Shown piece by piece: positions 27,878-55,586 of a DNA stretch of 64,000 bases (position 1 is the first letter of the stretch; each line of letters starts with the position of its first letter). Both the position numbers and the translations under genes were made by a program. The notes below the pieces were generated by a model, which did no database searches, was not told the DNA's origin, and was given only the letters and a program-made list of their open reading frames with translations. Location of the stretch: positions 1,152,001 to 1,216,000 of the forward strand of contig OZ244720.1 of the NCBI GenBank assembly GCA_965219085.1, given 5' to 3'. Source of the stretch: Dehalococcoidia bacterium. GTDB taxonomy: Bacteria; Chloroflexota; Dehalococcoidia; UBA2979.

Positions 27878-28078
27878 TCGTCGACACATCGGCGCTCGTC
27901 GCTGTGCTGTTCGCCGAGCCTGATGCCGAGCGCTATGCGCAGGCGATAAGCGATGCCGAGCACTGCCGGATGTCCGCCGCGAACTTTCTAGAGGCCGCGA
28001 TGGTCGTCGAAGGGCGAGGTGACTCCGGCTCCGCTGACGATCTCGACCGCTTCGTGGAGAGGGCTCCCATCGAGTTAG

Positions 28079-29371
28079 CAGGGTGCTGAAAAAGGCGCGG
28101 CCATCTGGCAGGATAGCGAAGGCGGCGGGGGCGTAGCCTGGGAGGCAGCCCCGTGCGAGGCGACGCCGAGCGCCAGACCAACATGTTGCTGGCGGTGACG
28201 CCGGACTCCTTCATCCCGGACGACCACCCGATCCGACGCATCAAGCCGATCGTCGATGCAGCGCTGCAGCGGCTCTCGCCGCTCTTCGGCACGATGTACG
28301 CAACGAGCGGGCGGCCCTCGATCCCGCCCGAGCACCTGCTCAAGGCGAGCCTGCTGATCGCGCTCTACTCGATCCGCAGCGAGCGCCAGTTCTGCGAGCG
28401 GCTGCGCTACGACCTGCTCTTCAAGTGGTTCTTGGACCTCAACATCTCAGACGCGCCGTTCGACGCCTCGAGCTTCTCGAAGAACCGCGAGCGCCTGCTC
28501 GCAGCCGATGTCGCGCGCGCCTTCTTCGCCGAGGTGGTGGCCGAGGCAAAGCGCCGCCGGCTGCTCTCCGCCGAGCACTTCACCGTGGACGGGACGCTGC
28601 TGGAGGCCTGGGCCTCGCTCAAGAGCTACCGCCCGCGCGACGGGCAGGAGCCACCCCCGGGCGGACGCAACCCGGACGTGGACTTCCGCGGGCGGCGGCG
28701 CAGCCGCGATACGCATAGCTCCGGCACCGACCCGCAGGCGCAGCTGTACACAAAGGGAGCGGGGCAGACGGCGAAACTGAGCTACATGGGCCATCTGCTC
28801 ACCGAGAACCGTCACGGCCTGGTGCTGGACGTGGAGTTGACCGAGGCGAACGGGTACGCCGAGCGCGAGGCCGCGGTCACGATGCTGGAGCGCAGCGTGA
28901 GCGGCTGCGGGACGCTGGGCGCCGACCGCGGCTACGACACGCGCGACTTCGTGGCGGAACTGCGCGCGCGCGGCGTGACGCCGCACGTGGCGCAAAACGA
29001 CCGCGGCCGCCGCAGCGCCGTGGACGGGCGCACCACGCGGCATCGCGGCTACAGGCAGAGTCAGCAGCGGCGCAAGATCGTGGAGCAGGTCTTCGGCTGG
29101 ATGAAGACCGTGGGCGGCGGGCGCAAGCTGCGTTTCGTGGGCCGCGAGCGCAACCGCGGCTGGCTGGAGCTCACCGCCGCCGCCTACAACCTCGTGCGCA
29201 TGGCCAGGCTCGAACTCGCCCCTGCGTAGGCGCAGTGCGCCCTCCGGCCGGTCCGGGAGCCCTCAGAGGCCCCCGGGGGCAGGTCAGGAGGCCACCATCA
29301 CGAAGCCGGAGGCGGCTTCAAGCCGCCTCTCGCCACTCCGAGACCCCGGAAGGCGCTTCTTCAGCACCCTG
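28079..29371 (+). mobile_element. Intact IS5-family element (CAGGGTGCTGAA ends)
   Basis: IRs cagggtgctgaa / ttcagcaccctg; TTAG duplication at 28075-28078 and 29372-29375. Confidence 0.95.
28153..29229 (+). CDS. IS5-family DDE transposase (DUF772-type N-terminus)
   Basis: DHPIRRI, GRPSIPPEHLL, YSIRSERQ, VDGTLLEAWASLKSY, GADRGYD, RKIVEQVFGWMK. Confidence 0.93.
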   Translation: MRGDAERQTNMLLAVTPDSFIPDDHPIRRIKPIVDAALQRLSPLFGTMYATSGRPSIPPEHLLKASLLIALYSIRSERQFCERLRYDLLFKWFLDLNISDAPFDASSFSKNRERLLAADVARAFFAEVVAEAKRRRLLSAEHFTVDGTLLEAWASLKSYRPRDGQEPPPGGRNPDVDFRGRRRSRDTHSSGTDPQAQLYTKGAGQTAKLSYMGHLLTENRHGLVLDVELTEANGYAEREAAVTMLERSVSGCGTLGADRGYDTRDFVAELRARGVTPHVAQNDRGRRSAVDGRTTRHRGYRQSQQRRKIVEQVFGWMKTVGGGRKLRFVGRERNRGWLELTAAAYNLVRMARLELAPA

Positions 29372-29592
29372 TTAGAGCCCGTCACGGCGGACCATGCGCA
29401 GCGCGCACGCCGCGCGTGGCGGCGGTTCGGGAAGGGCAACCACCCGGCGGGGCTGAACTTCGGTGACTGCTTCGCCTACGCGCTCGCCGAGGCCGCGCGT
29501 GAGCCGCTGCTGTTCAAGGGCGAGGACTTCGCGCTCACCGACATCGACGCGGCCTGAAACCTCATCCCGCCACGCCGCGAGGAGCGCACCAG

Positions 29593-49187: not shown

Positions 49188-50027
49188 ATGGCCACCGCGA
49201 CGATCAACGGCGTCGAGATCTACTACGAGGAGCACGGCTCGGGCCCGCCGATCCTGTTCCACCACGGCTTCACCGGGTCGCACGACGGCTTCGTGCCGAT
49301 CGCCGAGCGCCTGCAGGATCGCTTCCGCTGCATCCTCATGGACTCTCGCGGCGCCGGCGACAGCGAGCGTCCCGACGGCGGCTACACGATCGAGCAGTAC
49401 TCGCAAGACATCGTCGGTCTGCTCGACCACCTCGGGCTCGACCAGGTCGCGTACGTCGGCCACAGCATGGGCGGCGGCATCGGCTTCCAGCTCGGCCTCG
49501 AGCACGCCGAGCGCTTCACGCACATCATGCTCGTCACGCCCATCTCCGCCGACGGCTACGCGACCGACCCGGTGCAGGCGGCGCGAGGCCGCCAGCTGCG
49601 CATGGACGGGGCGCGCGACGTGCTGATCCGCGAACGCAAGACCGGGATCGCGCGCGAGGAGCTCATCGACGAAGCCGAGATCGCACGGGACGTCGACCGC
49701 TCGCTCTCGGCCTCCGACGGCCACTACGACGACGGCATGGTGGCGATGGCCACCCTGCGCGTCGGTGACCGCCTGGACGAGATGACGACGCCGACGCTGA
49801 TGATCACCTCCGCCGCCGACGCCCTGCTCGCGGCCAACCTCGCCGACTTCCAGCGCCTGCCGAACGCCTCGCTGCACGTCTTCAACCGCGTCGCGCACGG
49901 CGTGCAGGACGAGGTCCCGGACGAGTTCGCCGAGTTGGTCGCGGACTTCGTGACGCACGGCGTGGTTAACGCGCAGACGCTGGCTGACCGCCTCGTCGCC
50001 GTGCAGGCGGAGGCCGCAGCGGTCTAG
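49188..50027 (+). CDS. Alpha/beta hydrolase
   Basis: HHGF oxyanion motif, DSRGAG, GHSMGG; the stop codon lies in the CTAG target duplication of the IS. Confidence 0.92.
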   Translation: MATATINGVEIYYEEHGSGPPILFHHGFTGSHDGFVPIAERLQDRFRCILMDSRGAGDSERPDGGYTIEQYSQDIVGLLDHLGLDQVAYVGHSMGGGIGFQLGLEHAERFTHIMLVTPISADGYATDPVQAARGRQLRMDGARDVLIRERKTGIAREELIDEAEIARDVDRSLSASDGHYDDGMVAMATLRVGDRLDEMTTPTLMITSAADALLAANLADFQRLPNASLHVFNRVAHGVQDEVPDEFAELVADFVTHGVVNAQTLADRLVAVQAEAAAV

Positions 50028-50649
50028 CAGGCTGCTGAAGAAGCGCCCTTCCGGGGTCTCGGAGTGGCGAGAGGCGGCTTCAAGCCGCCTCCGGGTTCGT
50101 GATCGTGGCCTCCTGACCGGCCCCCGGGGGCCTCTGAGGGCTCCCTGGCGGGGCGGAGGGCGCACTGCGCCTACGCCGCGGCGGTCTCGAGCGTGGCCAT
50201 GCGCACGAGGTTGTAGGCGGCGGCGGTGAGCTCCAGCCAACAGCGGTTGCGCTCGCGGCCCACGAAGCGCAGCTTGCGCCCGCCGCCCACGGTCTTCATC
50301 CAGCCGAAGACCTGCTCCACGATCTTGCGCCGCTTCTGACTCTGCCTGTAGCCGCGATGCCGCGTGGTGCGCCCATCCACGGCGCTGCGGCGGCCGCGGT
50401 CGTGCTGCGCCACGTGCGGCGTCACGCCGCGAGCGCGCAGCGCCGCCACGAAGCCGCGCGTGTCGTAGCCGCGGTCGGCGCCCAGCGTCCCGCAGCCGCT
50501 CACGCTGCGCTCCAGCATCGTGACCGCCGCCTCGCGCTCGGCGTACCCGTTCGCCTCGGTCAACTCCACGTCCAGCACCAGACCGTGACGGTTCTCGGTG
50601 AGCAGATGGCCCATGTAGCTGAGCTTCGCCGTCTGCCCCGACCCCTAAT

Positions 50650-50852
50650 GGGGCCCGACCAGCGGCCAGAGGTTCTCTGGCAGACTGGTTCTGGACCCTG
50701 CCAGCCGGTGAGCTCTCAGCTGATCCCTGCGGCTTCTGGACCGCTTCACGAAGACCGAGCCCCTGCTGGTATTCCGGGTTGTTCTGCAGCACTCATGGGG
50801 TGTCGTGCCATCGAGCACTGATCCATTAGGCCGTCGCAGGAACCAACCCGCC
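50650..50852 (+). ncRNA. Predicted bridge RNA (5' stem-loop, target-binding loop, donor-binding loop)
   Basis: Target guides tgatccct (50721-50728) and cacgaag (50747-50753); donor guides ggggtgtc (50797-50804) and ccattag (50823-50829); each pair flanks an internal hairpin inside an outer stem. RNA ends approximate. Confidence 0.82.
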
Positions 50853-50896
50853 GGGTCGCACCGAGCAGCGCGAAGCGGGAGAGGAACTGAAACACG

Positions 50897-52120
50897 ATGG
50901 CCTTGTACCTGGGCGATGACTGGTCCGAAGACCACCACGACGTCCATCTCATGAACGACGCGGGCGAGCGGCTCGCCGCCCGGCGTCTGCCCGAAGGGGT
51001 GGAGGGCATCACTGCCCTGCACGGACTGGTCGCCGGGTACGCCTCAGGGCCGGGTGAGGTGATCGTCGGCATCGAGACGGACCGCGGCCCCTGGGTCGCG
51101 GCACTGCTCGCGGCCGGCTACCACGTCTACGCCATCAACCCGCGCTCGGCGTCGCGTTACCGCGACCGCCACCACGTCGGCGGCGCCAAGTCCGACGCCG
51201 GCGACGCGAAGCTGCTCGCCGACCTCGTCCGCACCGACCGGCACAACCACCGGGAGGTCGCCGGCGACAGCGACGAAGCCGCCGCGGTGCGCATCCTCGC
51301 CCGCGCCCACCAGCAGTTGATCTGGGACCGCGTCCGCCAGACCAACCGGCTGCGCAACGCGCTCAGGGAGTACTTTCCGGGTGCGCTGGAGGCCTTCCCC
51401 GACCTCGCGCACGACGACGCGGTGGGCGTGCTGGCGACAGCGCCTGGCCCGCGCGAGGCGGCGCGGCTGAGCATCACCCAGATCCGCTCCGCGCTGCGCC
51501 GCGGCGGCCGCCGGCGCAACATCGAGCGGCGCGCCGCCGAGGTCCGCGACGCGCTGCGCTCACCGCAGCTCGAGGCTCCGCCCGCGGTGAGCAAGGCATT
51601 CGCCGCGAGCACCAGTGCGGCAATGAGGGTGATCGGCGAGATCAACCGTCAGATCAAGGAGCTCGAGGCCGAGCTCGCGAGCCATTTTGAGCAGCACCCG
51701 GACGCCGGTATCTACCGTTCCCTGCCCGGTCTCGGCGTGGTCCTCGGCGCCCGGGTGCTTGGCGAGTTCGGGGATGACCCCGAACGCTACGAGTCGGCGA
51801 AGTCCCGCAGGAACTACGCCGGCACGTCGCCGCTGACGGTAGCATCCGGCCGCAAGCACACCGTGAAAGCCCGCTTCGTCCGCAACCGGCGCCTCTACGA
51901 CGCAGTCGACCAGTGGGCGCTGTGCTCCCTGCAGGCCAGCCCCGGCTGCCGCGAGTTCTACGATCGGCGGCGCGCCGCGGGCGACCTCCACCACCAGGCG
52001 CTCCGCGCCCTCGGCAACCGTCTCGTCGGCTACCTACATGGCTGCCTGAAGCGCCGCTTGCCCTACGACGAGACGACCGCCTGGGGACACCGTTACACCC
52101 ACGAGGACCTCGCTGCTTGA
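50897..52120 (+). CDS. IS110-family recombinase/transposase
   Basis: DEDD residues in LGDDWSE, GIET, KSDAGDA; SLPGLG; YAGTSPLTVASGR. Confidence 0.95.
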   Translation: MALYLGDDWSEDHHDVHLMNDAGERLAARRLPEGVEGITALHGLVAGYASGPGEVIVGIETDRGPWVAALLAAGYHVYAINPRSASRYRDRHHVGGAKSDAGDAKLLADLVRTDRHNHREVAGDSDEAAAVRILARAHQQLIWDRVRQTNRLRNALREYFPGALEAFPDLAHDDAVGVLATAPGPREAARLSITQIRSALRRGGRRRNIERRAAEVRDALRSPQLEAPPAVSKAFAASTSAAMRVIGEINRQIKELEAELASHFEQHPDAGIYRSLPGLGVVLGARVLGEFGDDPERYESAKSRRNYAGTSPLTVASGRKHTVKARFVRNRRLYDAVDQWALCSLQASPGCREFYDRRRAAGDLHHQALRALGNRLVGYLHGCLKRRLPYDETTAWGHRYTHEDLAA

Positions 52121-52299
52121 CCCCTTAGCGTCCTGGGGGTGTCTTCGTGTACAGCCGCGCCTCCGGGTCCGTGCCGGAACTATGCGTATCGCGGCTGCGC
52201 CGCCGCCCGCGGAAGTCGACATCCGGGTTGCGTCCGCCCAGGGGTGGCTCCTGCTCGTCGCGCGGGCGGTAGCTTCTATGAGGGACGGTCTTTCTGCAA

Positions 52300-52600
52300 G
52301 GCCGACGTGGCGGCCTCCTCCTCGGGGCGTGGCGCTCCTCGACATCGGGGCCGATCCGCTCGTGATGTCCCCTGACGGAGCCTGTGCCGAGCTTCTATCC
52401 GCACTCTTTGATGGGCCACGTATCGGGCCCGGTGCATGAAGGCACATCCTGCTTCCAGGGGGCGCTGCCAACTCTTGAACGTCCTTGTTGGACCGCTACC
52501 GCCTCGCAGTCGCCCGTTGCCCGGCATCACGTGCAGTGGTTGGTTTGCTGGGCCTCCTCCCAGGTCCGTCTCAGTCTCGCTCTCCTGGTCGGTTGCTTCG
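52300..52600 (-). ncRNA. Predicted bridge/seek RNA of the IS1111-group element
   Basis: RNA-sense ggcgguagc (52503-52495) + hairpin gucc-aacaa-ggac + ucaagag (52478-52472) match the two halves of the insertion site; auagaag (52398-52392) is complementary to the donor junction. RNA ends approximate. Confidence 0.8.
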
Positions 52601-52613
52601 GCGCCGCGCCTTG

Positions 52614-53702
52614 CTACGCGGCCTCCTGCGCCGCGGCGTCGCGCAACGGCTCGTAGACCTCGCCGGTCTTCCACAGCGCGAGCAGCAGCACCGCCAGCCG
52701 CCTCGCGACGCCCACGACGGCGCGCTTCTTCGCGTTACCGGCCCCCGTAGCGGTGTAGCGCTCACCCCAGCGGCGCAGGTCGGTGTCGGGCCCGAAGGGG
52801 CCGAGGATGTAGTGCGCGGCCTGCACCAGCAGCCGCCGCAGGTGCGGATCGCCGCTCTTGCCGATGCCGAGTTGCGGCGTGCGCTCGCCCGAGTCGCGCT
52901 GCCTCGGCACGAGCCCGAGGTAGGCGCCGACCTCGCGGTTCTTCGGGAAGCGCCCAGGATCCTCGATCGTCAGCACGAACGTGAGCGCGGTGATCGGCCC
53001 GACGCCCGTGACCTGGCGCAGCGCCGCGGTCTCGGAGTGAGCCTCGCACAACGCCTCGATCTCGCGGCCGGCCGCCGCGATGCGCGCGGTCAGCTCGCCG
53101 ATCGCCTCCACCAGCGGCAGCAGCGCCGGGCGCAGCCCGTCGGGGATGTGGTCCGCCGTCTTGCGGTGGAACGCCTCGGCCGTGCACGACGGCAACGCGG
53201 CTCCGCAGGCCTTGACGGCCCCGCGCACGTGGTTGATGAGCAGCGTCCGCGAGCGCACCAGCGCGTCGCGGGCGCGCACCACGGCGAGGTCGTGCTGGCT
53301 CGCCTCGCTGCGGTGGCGGATCGGGGCGAGCAACTGGGGGTCGAAGCGCCCCAGCCGCGCCAGCCACTCGGCGTCGAGCCGGTCGGTCTTGCGCTGGCTG
53401 CGGGCGATCAGCGCGACCTGGCGCGGGTTGGCGACGACCACCTCGTGGCCGAGGTCCGCCATGAGGCGGCTCAGCCACGGCGAGCGCGGCCCCGCCTCGA
53501 TCACGACCCGCGATGGGGGGAGGCCGGTCAGCACCATGCCCAGCGCTGCCGTCGTGGTGCGGACGCGCCTCTCACGTACCACCTCCCCGCCGGCGCCGAG
53601 GGCGTGGACGTGGGTGTAGCGGTCGCCCACGTCGAGGCCGATGGTGACCCCTGACCCTTCCTTGCCCTCAATGCTCCACGTCGTTGCGGTATCCTGCTGC
53701 AC
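52614..53702 (-). CDS. IS110/IS1111-family recombinase/transposase
   Basis: IGLDVG, VIEAG, VANPRQV, KTDRLDA, GVGPITA, YLGLVPRQRDSG, ARRLAVLL. Confidence 0.95.
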   Translation of the reverse strand: MQQDTATTWSIEGKEGSGVTIGLDVGDRYTHVHALGAGGEVVRERRVRTTTAALGMVLTGLPPSRVVIEAGPRSPWLSRLMADLGHEVVVANPRQVALIARSQRKTDRLDAEWLARLGRFDPQLLAPIRHRSEASQHDLAVVRARDALVRSRTLLINHVRGAVKACGAALPSCTAEAFHRKTADHIPDGLRPALLPLVEAIGELTARIAAAGREIEALCEAHSETAALRQVTGVGPITALTFVLTIEDPGRFPKNREVGAYLGLVPRQRDSGERTPQLGIGKSGDPHLRRLLVQAAHYILGPFGPDTDLRRWGERYTATGAGNAKKRAVVGVARRLAVLLLALWKTGEVYEPLRDAAAQEAA

Positions 53703-54516
53703 GGCCGGTCTCCTACCTCGTCAAAGCTCCGCAAAGAGCCGTTCTGGCCCATCGAGGCCGCTGTTTCGGGGGCGAGTATCCCCCTTGAGGAAGAGACCGG
53801 CCCTCATGCCATCTCTTGAGCGACGCCCACGCCTCGAGCAGCGTCCCGTCCACCGTGAAGTGCTCGGCCGAGAGCAGCCGGCGGCGCTTTGCCTCGGCCA
53901 CCACCTCGGCGAAGAAGGCGCGCGCGACATCGGCTGCGAGCAGGCGCTCGCGGTTCTTGGAGAAGCTCGAGGCGTCGAACGGCGCGTCTGAGATGTTGAG
54001 GTCCAAGAACCACTTGAAGAGCAGGTCGTAGCGCAGCCGCTCGCTGAACTGGCGCTCGCTGCGGATCGAGTAGAGCGCGATCAGCAGGCTCGCCTTGAGC
54101 AGGTGCTCGGGCGGGATCGAGGGCCGCCCGCTCGTTGCGTACATCGTGCCGAAGAGCGGCGAGAGCCGCTGCAGCGCTGCATCGACGATCGGCTTGATGC
54201 GTCGGATCGGGTGGTCGTCCGGGATGAAGGAGTCCGGCGTCACCGCCAGCAACATGTTGGTCTGACGCTCAGCGTCGCCTCGCACGGGGCTGCCTCCCAG
54301 GCTACGCCCCCGCCGCCTTCGCTATCCTGCCAGATGGCCGCGCCTTTTTCAGCACCCTGCTAGGCTCCCCACCTGGGGCCGAACGCAAGAATCGGGGAGC
54401 CGCCGCGGCGGCTCCCCGGCGTCACCTCCGTGGCGCGGCCGAGGGCGATCCGGGTGGCGACGCAGCCCCACCCGAGCGCAAAGACGACTACCAGCCGTAA
54501 TCGGAGAGTGATTCTT

Positions 54517-54672
54517 ACAGGCTGTAGCACGTGCTTATAGGGTATACATACAGGCCATAGCACGTGCTTCCGAGCGTCGACCGACTGGTTGTCCCCCTCG
54601 GTCTGAGCCCCTATAGCGGACGCGACAGGCTGTAGCACGTGCTTATAGCGTGATATACACGTTGTAGCCTGT
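54517..54672. repeat. Three copies of acaggc(tg/ca)tagcacgtgctt plus an inverted partial copy; probable operators
   Basis: 54517-54540 and 54625-54648 identical (24 bp), 54550-54569 variant; each contains the palindrome agcacgtgct. Confidence 0.8.
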
Positions 54673-54683
54673 ACTATCGACCT

Positions 54684-55154
54684 ATGCCTTCCTCGAACGC
54701 GCACGCACGATCACGGCTCGATGCCCGTTTGAGCCTGCTTCGGCCGCTCAGCCGGGAGCCGCTTCCGCACGCCGGGTGGATCCGGGCGATCCGCCAGGCA
54801 CTCGGCATGTCCGGCAGGGAGTTGGGAGACCGGTTGGGAGTCAGTCAGCAGACCATCCCCAACATCGAGCGCAGCGAACAACGCGGCGCCATCAAGCTGG
54901 AGACGTTGCGACGCGCCGCTGACGCTCTCGACTGCGATCTCGTGTACGCGCTCGTGCCCCGCCGCAGTCTGGATGAGCTCGTCATGGCGCAGGCCCGCCG
55001 CAAGGCGACCGATCACCTCCGGCCGATAGCGCACCACAGCCGACTCGATGATCAGGCGGTCACCGGCACGGATGCCGCGGCCCAGATCGACGAACTCGCG
55101 GCTCACTTCGTCGATCGCAGGGGCCTCTGGACCGAGTCGACAGCGCCGCGATAG
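54684..55154 (+). CDS. Mobile mystery protein A-like HTH protein
   Basis: GWIRAIRQALGMSGRELGDRLGVSQQ...IERSE...LETLRRAADALDCDLVYALVPR. Confidence 0.88.
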   Translation: MPSSNAHARSRLDARLSLLRPLSREPLPHAGWIRAIRQALGMSGRELGDRLGVSQQTIPNIERSEQRGAIKLETLRRAADALDCDLVYALVPRRSLDELVMAQARRKATDHLRPIAHHSRLDDQAVTGTDAAAQIDELAAHFVDRRGLWTESTAPR

Positions 55155-55586
55155 CCCGCGCGGCTCCTCGACGACAAGTACCTGCGCGATCTGCACGCTG
55201 CCATGTTCGGCGACGTCTGGAACTGGGCGGGCCGCTATCGGACTCTCGAAACCAACATCGGCGTCGCTCCGCACCGGATCGCAGCGGACATCCGGCTCAT
55301 GGTCGGAGACACCCGAGCGTGGGTGGAACACGACACGTACGGTTCCGACGAGCTGGCGGTGAGGTTCCACCACCGTCTCGTCGAGATTCATCCGTTCGCG
55401 AACGGCAACGGACGCCTCGGTCGAGTCGCCGCCAACTACCTGATCCGGGGTCTCGGAGCCGAAGCCTTCAGCTGGGGAGCCCGCGCCGACCTCGAGACCG
55501 ACGCGCTCCGGGGCGCCTATCGCCGCGCGCTTCAGCGCGCGGATGCCGGCGAGATCGCCGAGCTGCTGGCGTTCGCGCGCACCTGA
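55155..55586 (+). pseudogene. Mobile mystery protein B-like Fic protein, apparently 5'-truncated
   Basis: LRDLHAAMFGDVWNWAGRYR..ETNIGV...HHRLVEIHPFANGNGRLGR; no start for the usual N-terminal part; in frame with the upstream TAG. Confidence 0.75.

Follow-up and report, generated by a model that had tools for sequence, protein, structure and literature searches.

A predicted RNA-guided IS1111-type insertion sequence in an IS5-family transposase gene of a Dehalococcoidia bacterium

The 64,000-nucleotide stretch of a Dehalococcoidia genome analysed here (the window; G000:C1:1152001-1216000 in genome coordinates) carries on its minus strand, at 52275-53814, a complete IS1111-type insertion sequence (IS) that interrupts the transposase gene of an IS5-family element. 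From sequence comparisons we consider it very probable that this element is a member of the IS1111 group of the IS110 family and that an RNA from its downstream non-coding region directs its DEDD/Tnp20 recombinase to the site in the IS5 transposase gene. The anatomy of the element and its exact insertion site can be read against an intact IS5 copy, its guide segments covary with the flanking DNA among related copies, the same IS5 position has been used repeatedly and independently, and the element has spread as part of a composite with IS5.

Insertion site and anatomy of the element

The window contains an intact IS5-family element of 1301 bp (28076-29376, plus strand), whose transposase gene (28153-29229) is an open reading frame (ORF) of 358 amino acids (aa) that matches Pfam DUF772 and DDE_Tnp_1 and NCBIfam NF033581 (254 bits). 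A second, older IS5 copy occupies the minus strand from 54362 to 50023, cut into three pieces by two insertions. Its 5' part, corresponding to IS5 positions 1-550, lies at 53815-54362 (98.4% identity to 28076-28625), a middle fragment between the two IS110-family insertions at 52143-52274 (91.6% identity to 28615-28755) and its 3' part at 50023-50646 (94.7% identity to 28754-29376). On the minus strand, in IS5 orientation, the junctions of the interrupted copy read ...GCTCAAGAG|ATGGCATGAGGG...CCCTCATAGAAG|CTACCGCCCG, and the intact copy reads ...GCTCAAGAGCTACCGCCCG across the same position. Comparison of the two gives exactly the pre-insertion site that an earlier reading of the sequence alone (the sequence-only reading) had reconstructed, GGCGGTAG-CT-CTTGA on the plus strand, and the element is the sole difference between the occupied and the empty site. 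The target in transposase orientation is TCAAG-AG-CTACCGCC, and the IS5-family transposase gene is split exactly there. A single CT (AG on the transposase strand) stands at each junction, 52273-52274 on one side and 53813-53814 on the other; therefore, no target duplication was made.

The unoccupied target GGCGGTAG-CT-CTTGA is present as an exact match in the intact IS5 copy at 28619-28633 (minus strand). As had been stated from the sequence alone, this 15-mer (GGCGGTAGCTCTTGA) codes for LKSYR, 11 residues past VDGT, in the 358-aa IS5 transposase; it was the only match in the window when up to two mismatches were allowed. The Asp of VDGT is presumably the catalytic one of the IS5/IS1182 motif. 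In the occupied copy the 358-codon ORF is broken after codon 158, in agreement with the earlier claim that the transposase is disabled. The exact 15-mer occurs six times in the whole genome, every time within an IS5 copy. A genome search with up to two mismatches placed these six exact sites and two of the three one-mismatch sites in IS5, and the four near-matches outside IS5, one of which has a broken core, are all unoccupied.

The element is 1540 bp long, including one CT/AG core (53813-53814). Its transposase gene (52614-53702, minus strand) encodes 362 aa, with a DEDD (RuvC-like) N-terminal and a Tnp20 C-terminal domain according to Pfam and NCBIfam: the matches are PF01548 (69.9 bits), PF02371 (72.2 bits) and NF033542, "IS110 family RNA-guided transposase" (240 bits, cut-off 140). 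The C-terminal part shows a weak match to the IS621 and ISCro4 structures. The ORF length takes the first GTG as start, and alignments with relatives begin at residue 1. The gene is followed by a non-coding region of 339 nt (52275-52613, minus strand) that is predicted to encode a guide RNA, with a conserved scaffold and two hypervariable segments; no ORF with a family match was found in it. The upstream non-coding flank measures only 112 nt (53703-53814). Subterminal inverted repeats were found at the tnp-distal end (52278-52290, ATGAGGGACGGTC on the plus strand, after the 3-nt extension TCT) and at the tnp-proximal end (53795-53807, GACCGGCCCTCAT on the plus strand, before the extension GCCAT and the core CT); the 13-bp arms ATGAGGGCCGGTC and ATGAGGGACGGTC agree at 12/13 positions. 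In transposase orientation the terminal extensions are AGATGGC (7 nt) on the left and AGA (3 nt) on the right, one AG being counted in the element.

The IS1111 family has subterminal inverted repeats of ~11-13 bp, and these repeats, asymmetric 7/3 extensions and a longer downstream non-coding region are given as its hallmarks relative to the IS110 type (PMC11187229). The assignment to the IS1111 type made in the sequence-only reading is borne out by the DEDD/Tnp20 domains, the subterminal repeats, the 7/3-nt extensions, the downstream RNA region and the GLVPRQRDSG of the transposase translation, which agrees with the GL-P----S(t)G motif of the IS1111 C-terminal domain. Judged from its sequence, the element has all IS1111 features that could be tested except transposase length (362 aa vs the stated range of 330-350 aa).

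Guide segments and their covariation with flanking DNA

A conserved module of ~185 nt that resembles a seekRNA or bridge RNA was delimited at 52355-52539 (minus strand) by its consensus fold, on which covariance model R1 was based. It contains GGCGGTAGC-N16-TCAAGAG at 52503-52472 (minus strand), the two segments that had been claimed to match the target halves, and they do so over 9/9 and 7/7 bases. Guide 1, the predicted 5' loop strand (GGCGGUAGC, 52495-52503, minus strand), can pair 9/9 with GCTACCGCC, which is the core G plus the right target half in transposase orientation. Guide 2, the predicted 3' loop strand (UCAAGAG, 52472-52478, minus strand), is identical (7/7) to the left target half together with the AG core and would pair with the bottom strand. 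The two guides overlap in the target by one base (core G/C). The combined motif occurs once in the window and in 0/100 dinucleotide shuffles. The hairpin and outer stem of the earlier proposal were recovered as well: the guides form the two strands of an internal loop between a stem (GGGCG.CUGC / GCAG.CG.CC) and a capping hairpin (GUCC/GGAC), both in a single-sequence fold and in a nine-sequence consensus fold. Because the single-sequence fold of the non-coding region is no more stable than that of shuffled sequences (z = 0.15), fold stability counts for nothing here. The segment that complements the top strand right of the core lies 5' of the segment that copies the top strand from its left side through the core; the same guide order is published for IS1111 seekRNAs and the reverse for the IS110 type (PMC11187229). 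In all cases the segments lie ~200-230 nt inside the element, between conserved stems, in the same arrangement. Model R1 found 13 matches in the genome, all in copies of this element family, and no match in the 150 other genomes of the same class that were searched; the element family is rare.

Copies and homologs were collected and their flanks tabulated. The genome holds 11 near-full copies, five of the window type (A1-A5) and six at 85-88% identity (B1-B6), with four guide pairs among them. Between copies the loop strands change together with their own flanks and the scaffold is kept: column identity averages 0.45 and 0.53 for the two guide segments vs 0.84-0.86 for the scaffold. All five A copies lie at one IS5 position in one orientation, past codon 158 of the IS5-family transposase gene. 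The B1/B2/B6 class targets a 454-aa IS1380-family transposase gene (PF13701; NF033539, 332 bits), and the B5 class the 3' part of an IS3-family OrfB around the rve_3 Pfam match (NF033516, 234 bits). The B3 class lies in a ~65-bp piece homologous to an internal segment of a 407-aa IS110-type transposase gene. In a relative, the L026 class splits an IS21 istA gene, with the HTH on one side, rve on the other and IstB next to it. The target surroundings of L021, L024 and L042 contained no demonstrable IS, and the L040 site no recognisable IS on either flank. The claim of specificity for one IS family thus stands for the window-type element but not for its sisters, which target other families; therefore, specialisation sits in the guide and not in the lineage. 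The sequence-only reading had also reasoned that copies at sites unrelated to IS5 would speak against it. Sister copies do sit in other IS families, but their guides covary with those sites. Taken together, both loop strands covary with the flanks over ~11 guide classes and the layout agrees with published IS1111 seekRNAs, as expected if the element is RNA-programmed. The surroundings of B3 (G000:C1:889000-897000, L048) form a dense IS nest, in which an IS256-type element (Transposase_mut), B3, a diverged IS110-type gene and an intact IS5 lie within 8 kb.

In a prediction test, targets were written down from the RNA alone and the genome was then searched for them. For B2, B3 and B5 the adjacent flank on one side is unmatched, and the predicted junction was found 59-735 bp further out; the true outer junctions of these copies are hidden by tandem partial copies of the RNA-coding end. 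The empty site predicted for B5, the 13-mer GGCTG-CT-ATGCGG, occurs 10 times, always in IS3-family copies. The tandem region beside B5 (G000:C1:2850004-2850745, L010) comprises four additional units (322, 119, 175 and 119 bp), and a second complete RNA module lies in one of them. Further regions of this kind lie at 1261334-1261400 and 893320-893403 of G000:C1, beside B2/B3, and at L042:3870-4000. Every tandem unit starts after an internal AG and stops at the true element end; the L042 unit begins immediately behind the DNA encoding guide 2, whose sequence is by design that of the left target half.

The comparison was extended to 26 related loci from seven metagenome-assembled genomes, six of Dehalococcoidia/Tepidiformaceae and one of 'Candidatus Acidiferrum'. 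Copies with an automatically readable guide and flank were pooled, giving 14 distinct guide-1/flank pairs and 15 guide-2/flank pairs; B6, L024, L039, L042 and L044 were left out for lack of a flank on one side, L025, L027-L031 and L033 for an atypical left junction, and L045 for lack of the RNA module. Guide 1 shared a run of at least 7 bases with 8/14 cognate and 0/140 non-cognate flanks, and a run of at least 6 with 10/14 and 4/140, respectively. For guide 2, a run of at least 7 was shared with 10/15 cognate and 3/141 non-cognate flanks, and the three non-cognate matches are guide variants for one IS1380-type site. In another genome, a single-base guide difference (CACCCACU vs CACCCGCU) is mirrored by the flanks TGGGTG vs CGGGTG. 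L038 and L040 share one guide class and an identical 16-nt site in loci that are otherwise unrelated. In a relative with 52% transposase identity from another phylum, which was read by hand and carries two tandem target loops, guide 2 matches 7 contiguous bases and guide 1 7/8. The prediction test and these cross-genome cases are stronger arguments than the pair counts.

Some of the related loci are themselves interrupted. In L024, L033 and L043 the non-coding region is broken right after GGATAG, ~125 nt into the RNA module, by ~1.25 kb of foreign DNA, and at the left junctions of several among L025, L027-L031, L033 and L045 the proximal end reads ...CAGTTAGCCGGGCGCT|CTGGCATG and not the normal extension. 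Another element may target the ends or the donor-guide region of this IS.

On the donor side, the putative guide AUAGAAG (52392-52398, minus strand) equals the tnp-distal end of the element plus the core (...CAUAGA-AG), as had been noted from the sequence. All 12 aligned non-coding regions have an invariant ATAG; in three of them an interruption follows immediately, and the other nine contain ATAGAAG in full. The motif is also kept in relatives of 69% and 52% identity. Because AUAGAAG never varies, it offers no covariation test, and a role as donor guide is plausible. The second donor strand is less clear, as the sequence-only reading had already judged: the candidate CCUUCAUGC (52442-52434) can pair 9/9, with one G.U, with tnp-proximal positions 4-12, without covariation in the two divergent relatives L042 and L044.

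We propose the following mechanism for this single-gene insertion sequence. Its recombinase would be directed by an RNA transcribed from the downstream non-coding region, in which the 5' strand of the target loop would pair with the top strand right of the AG core and the 3' strand with the bottom strand left of and across the core. Together they would specify TCAAG-AG-CTACCGCC, which in this genome lies only inside the IS5-family transposase gene. An invariant part of the RNA, AUAGAAG and a second partner, would hold the abutted ends of a circular intermediate, and recombination at the core dinucleotide would insert the element in one orientation, without duplication, and split the IS5 ORF. 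Exchange of just the two loop strands would let close relatives land in other IS families. The dependence on RNA, the circular intermediate and the chemistry of recombination are proposed here by analogy with the published family.

Spread with IS5 and alternative explanations

With regard to INDEPENDENCE and hitch-hiking, the copies A1, A2 and A3 are not independent: a single 4.34-kb unit, consisting of IS5 with this element and a second IS110 inside, is present at three loci with 99.8% identity. The homology stops at the IS5 termini and the surroundings are unrelated; therefore, the composite was copied as a unit, presumably by the IS5 transposase of one of the six intact full-length copies. 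The earlier claim that the element rides on IS5 is supported by these three composites. Since the IS5 ends are intact, a disabled IS5 and its passenger would still be movable by the transposase of intact IS5 copies. When {A1-A3}, {A4} and {A5} are compared as lineages, 0-4 of 1510 element bases differ, against 16-41 of 548 bases in the adjoining IS5 sequences. Near-identical elements in diverged IS5 hosts point to at least three separate insertions into IS5, to which the ancestor of B4 would add a fourth. The IS5 copy c10, with the second IS110 only and an empty site, is the expected pre-insertion state. A4 and A5 show 0/1510 element differences and are nearly identical to A1, and their IS5 hosts differ at 33-41/548 positions. 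Both carry an identical 913-bp ORF-less group II intron (RF02003, 95 bits; RF00029, 44.8 bits), antisense and 15 bp from the distal end, at G000:C1:1972909-1973821 and 1859038-1859950 (L004:3026-3938). The genome has no further copy of the intron, which was apparently carried along when the element moved into a second IS5 copy. The transposase ORFs of all A copies are intact.

Several observations weigh against the proposed mechanism. B4 (G000:C1:340394-341911, L009) has IS1380-type guides, yet it sits at the same position in a very diverged IS5 copy. It is a mosaic, in which ~1200 bp are 100% identical to B1/B2 and the first ~300 bp are only 86-89% identical to other copies. This break in identity shows B4 to be a recombinant, with its guide region overwritten after insertion, and from its sequence we take B4 as evidence for recombination or conversion between co-resident variants. 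L032 combines the guides of one class with the site of another; it is not a mosaic, since both ends are of the L026 type, and it is possible that its guide was supplied in trans by a co-resident variant, as all variants share ends. No flank matches in L033, and for B1, L043 and the L020/L021 class just one of the two sides gives a good match. The guide-flank pairs are not statistically independent because the elements are related. Perfect IS5 sites stand empty in six cases, and therefore present activity may be low. No circle junction of abutted ends was seen in the metagenome contigs of four of the 22 listed public runs, where contigs are short and rare forms would not be visible; one of the four, an RNA run, gave no usable expression signal. 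These contigs gave short fragments, one tandem partial-end form and skips equal to the empty IS5 site, the last being uninformative because intact IS5 copies give the identical result. As a 5' donor guide, CCUUCAUGC / CAUGC was tried in two registers against the tnp-proximal end, and neither holds in both L042 and L044. Only 4/53 predicted base pairs show two-sided change; as the stems hardly vary, the fold itself is weakly tested and rests mainly on conservation. An Rfam 15 scan of 49500-55000 (E <= 1) returned no bridge or seek RNA family, and none on 52275-52613, so the RNA class rests on our own alignment.

The matches could in principle be due to chance or to captured flanking DNA, with the protein alone recognising the site. 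In a G+C-rich region of 339 nt, chance alone can produce matches of 7-9 nt, and the z of 0.15 fits such a view. However, the module was absent from all 100 shuffles, both segments change with the flanks over the ~11 classes while the scaffold stays fixed, and imprecise excision would not yield segments ~200-230 nt inside the element in which the reverse complement of the right half precedes the left half in sense orientation; we regard this explanation as very improbable. The element could also be an inert passenger, with its copies multiplied only by IS5-moved composites or by recombination and gene conversion and its guide a relic. That A1, A2 and A3 are three copies of one composite, that B4 shows conversion between copies, that no circle junction was seen in the public contigs and that perfect sites are unoccupied would all be in keeping with this. 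But A4 and A5 carry identical elements close to A1 in IS5 hosts that differ at 33-41/548 positions, their shared 913-bp intron fits movement of the element better than movement of the host, and the transposase ORFs are intact in all A copies, so that an inert passenger seems unlikely.

The sequence-only reading had called the element an RNA-programmed parasite of IS5: that it is guided by RNA is supported by covariation, and it does ride on IS5 and disable it, but "parasite" is an evolutionary reading which a neutral safe harbour fits equally well. In the neutral case the element would be RNA-guided without being a specialised antagonist of IS; guides would drift or recombine, and only insertions in repeated dispensable DNA, which in an IS-rich genome is mostly IS copies, would survive. 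The empty perfect targets (six for the IS5 class, 10 for the IS3 class) agree with this, as do the L040 class site without an IS signature on either flank and the L021, L024 and L042 sites where no IS was shown. REP, attC and Tn21-end harbours are used by known members (PMC11187229; PMC11208160). Against it, the sites of all four guide classes in the genome, and of the L026 class in a relative (IS21 istA), are transposase-gene sequence and not intergenic repeats, and composite spread is a concrete benefit of sitting in an IS. We give the neutral account appreciable weight, short of calling it probable. With similar caution we put forward the idea that the clade is a specialised RNA-guided hyperparasite of other insertion sequences, which jumps between IS5, IS1380, IS3, IS110 and IS21 transposase genes by exchange of its loop strands. 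If this were true, each insertion would kill one host-IS copy and leave the host ends usable, the host IS machinery would carry the element in trans to new loci and potentially to new genomes, and the element might act as a brake on IS expansion in IS-rich genomes; the mismatched B4 and L032 could then reflect guides of co-resident variants acting in trans on shared ends.

The second IS110-group element in the interrupted IS5 copy (50647-52142, plus strand) is unrelated and encodes a 407-aa transposase (PF01548 and PF02371) at a second fixed site of the same IS5 copy. Five of its six genome copies lie at that IS5 position (...CCGACCC-CT / CT-TCGTGTACAG); the sixth is elsewhere, at a site that shares only CT-TCGTG. 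When its 250-nt upstream end was searched for guides, nothing came up but a reverse-complement 7-mer, ~10 nt away from the junction. The sole significant Rfam match in 49500-55000 is Ms_AS-4, "Actinobacteria sRNA" (51721-51802, minus strand; 63.9 bits, gathering threshold 50), which is antisense within the gene for the 407-aa protein; the Rfam family itself may be no more than conserved coding sequence of IS110 elements. Beyond the IS5 copy, direct repeats of a ACAGGCTGTAGCACGTGCTTATAG-like sequence (91% over 32-35 nt) at 54517-54659 lie just upstream of a small ORF (54684-55154), and the ORF at 55203-55586 contains HPFANGNGRLGR, presumably a Fic-type motif; 54517-55586 may hold an operator and a regulator/Fic pair.

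Comparison with known IS110-family systems

RNA-guided IS110/IS1111 recombination has been established since 2024, and the mechanism is not new; it is the ecology that is unusual and instructive. The nearest parallels known to us are members that insert into terminal repeats of Tn21-family transposons, into attC sites or into REP elements. IS4321 and IS5075 are IS1111 members that, as Partridge and Hall reportedly described in 2003, lie in the terminal repeats of the Tn21 family at one fixed site and in one orientation. From a transposon terminal repeat they affect end recognition, whereas the element described here lies in a transposase ORF, leaves the IS5 ends intact and keeps its host mobilisable in trans. 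The sequences give direct evidence that insertion makes the host IS a non-autonomous carrier that appears to be still spreading.

Closest in layout are ISEc11 and ISXne4 of the IS1111 group (Siddiquee et al. 2024, PMC11187229), which share with our element the downstream region, the overlapping guide order, the 7/3 extensions and the lack of duplication. Their close relatives are described there as differing only in the target-matching segments ("natural reprogramming"), as is the case here. The present element differs in that its target is the transposase coding sequence of another IS and in that a single genome holds at least four reprogrammed variants side by side; its ORF has 362 aa vs 330-350 aa given for the family, and its host is a member of Dehalococcoidia. 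Residence inside mobile elements is already published for attC-targeting IS1111 members (PMC11187229). The published full texts that were searched described no IS110/IS1111 element with its target in the transposase gene of another IS family, figures and supplements, which possibly show such targets, lying outside the search. The tandem RNA-end copies of B2, B3, B5 and L042 recall the tandem non-coding repeat units of expanded IS110 loci in a preprint of Hu et al. 2026 (10.64898/2026.08.14.744561), the text of which names IS1111 0 times; here the tandem units belong to an IS1111-type element.

With its AG core on the transposase strand, its two-strand target loop and its putative separate donor part, the element also resembles IS621. 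Hiraizumi et al. are said to have treated the bridge RNA of IS621 in 2024 as well. According to Durrant et al. 2024 (PMC11208160), the IS621 bridge RNA likewise has a CT core, a target loop of two strands and a separate donor part, but it lies upstream of the gene and its guide-strand order relative to the transposase strand is the reverse. The position of the RNA module downstream of the gene points to the IS1111 arrangement rather than the IS621 type; in common with the latter, its target loop has two programmable strands, which change along with the target halves. The putative donor region here looks multi-branched, whereas the donor part of IS621 is a simple loop. The copies described here are a clear case of one IS lineage living in the coding sequences of several other IS families. 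They also form a natural, internally controlled panel: within a single genome, near-identical recombinases and scaffolds are combined with four guide pairs whose occupied and empty targets are known, and the set includes a one-base register shift, tolerated mismatches and apparent mis-pairings. Such a panel should be useful for working out the guide rules and cross-talk of IS1111 elements, which are less understood than those of IS621.

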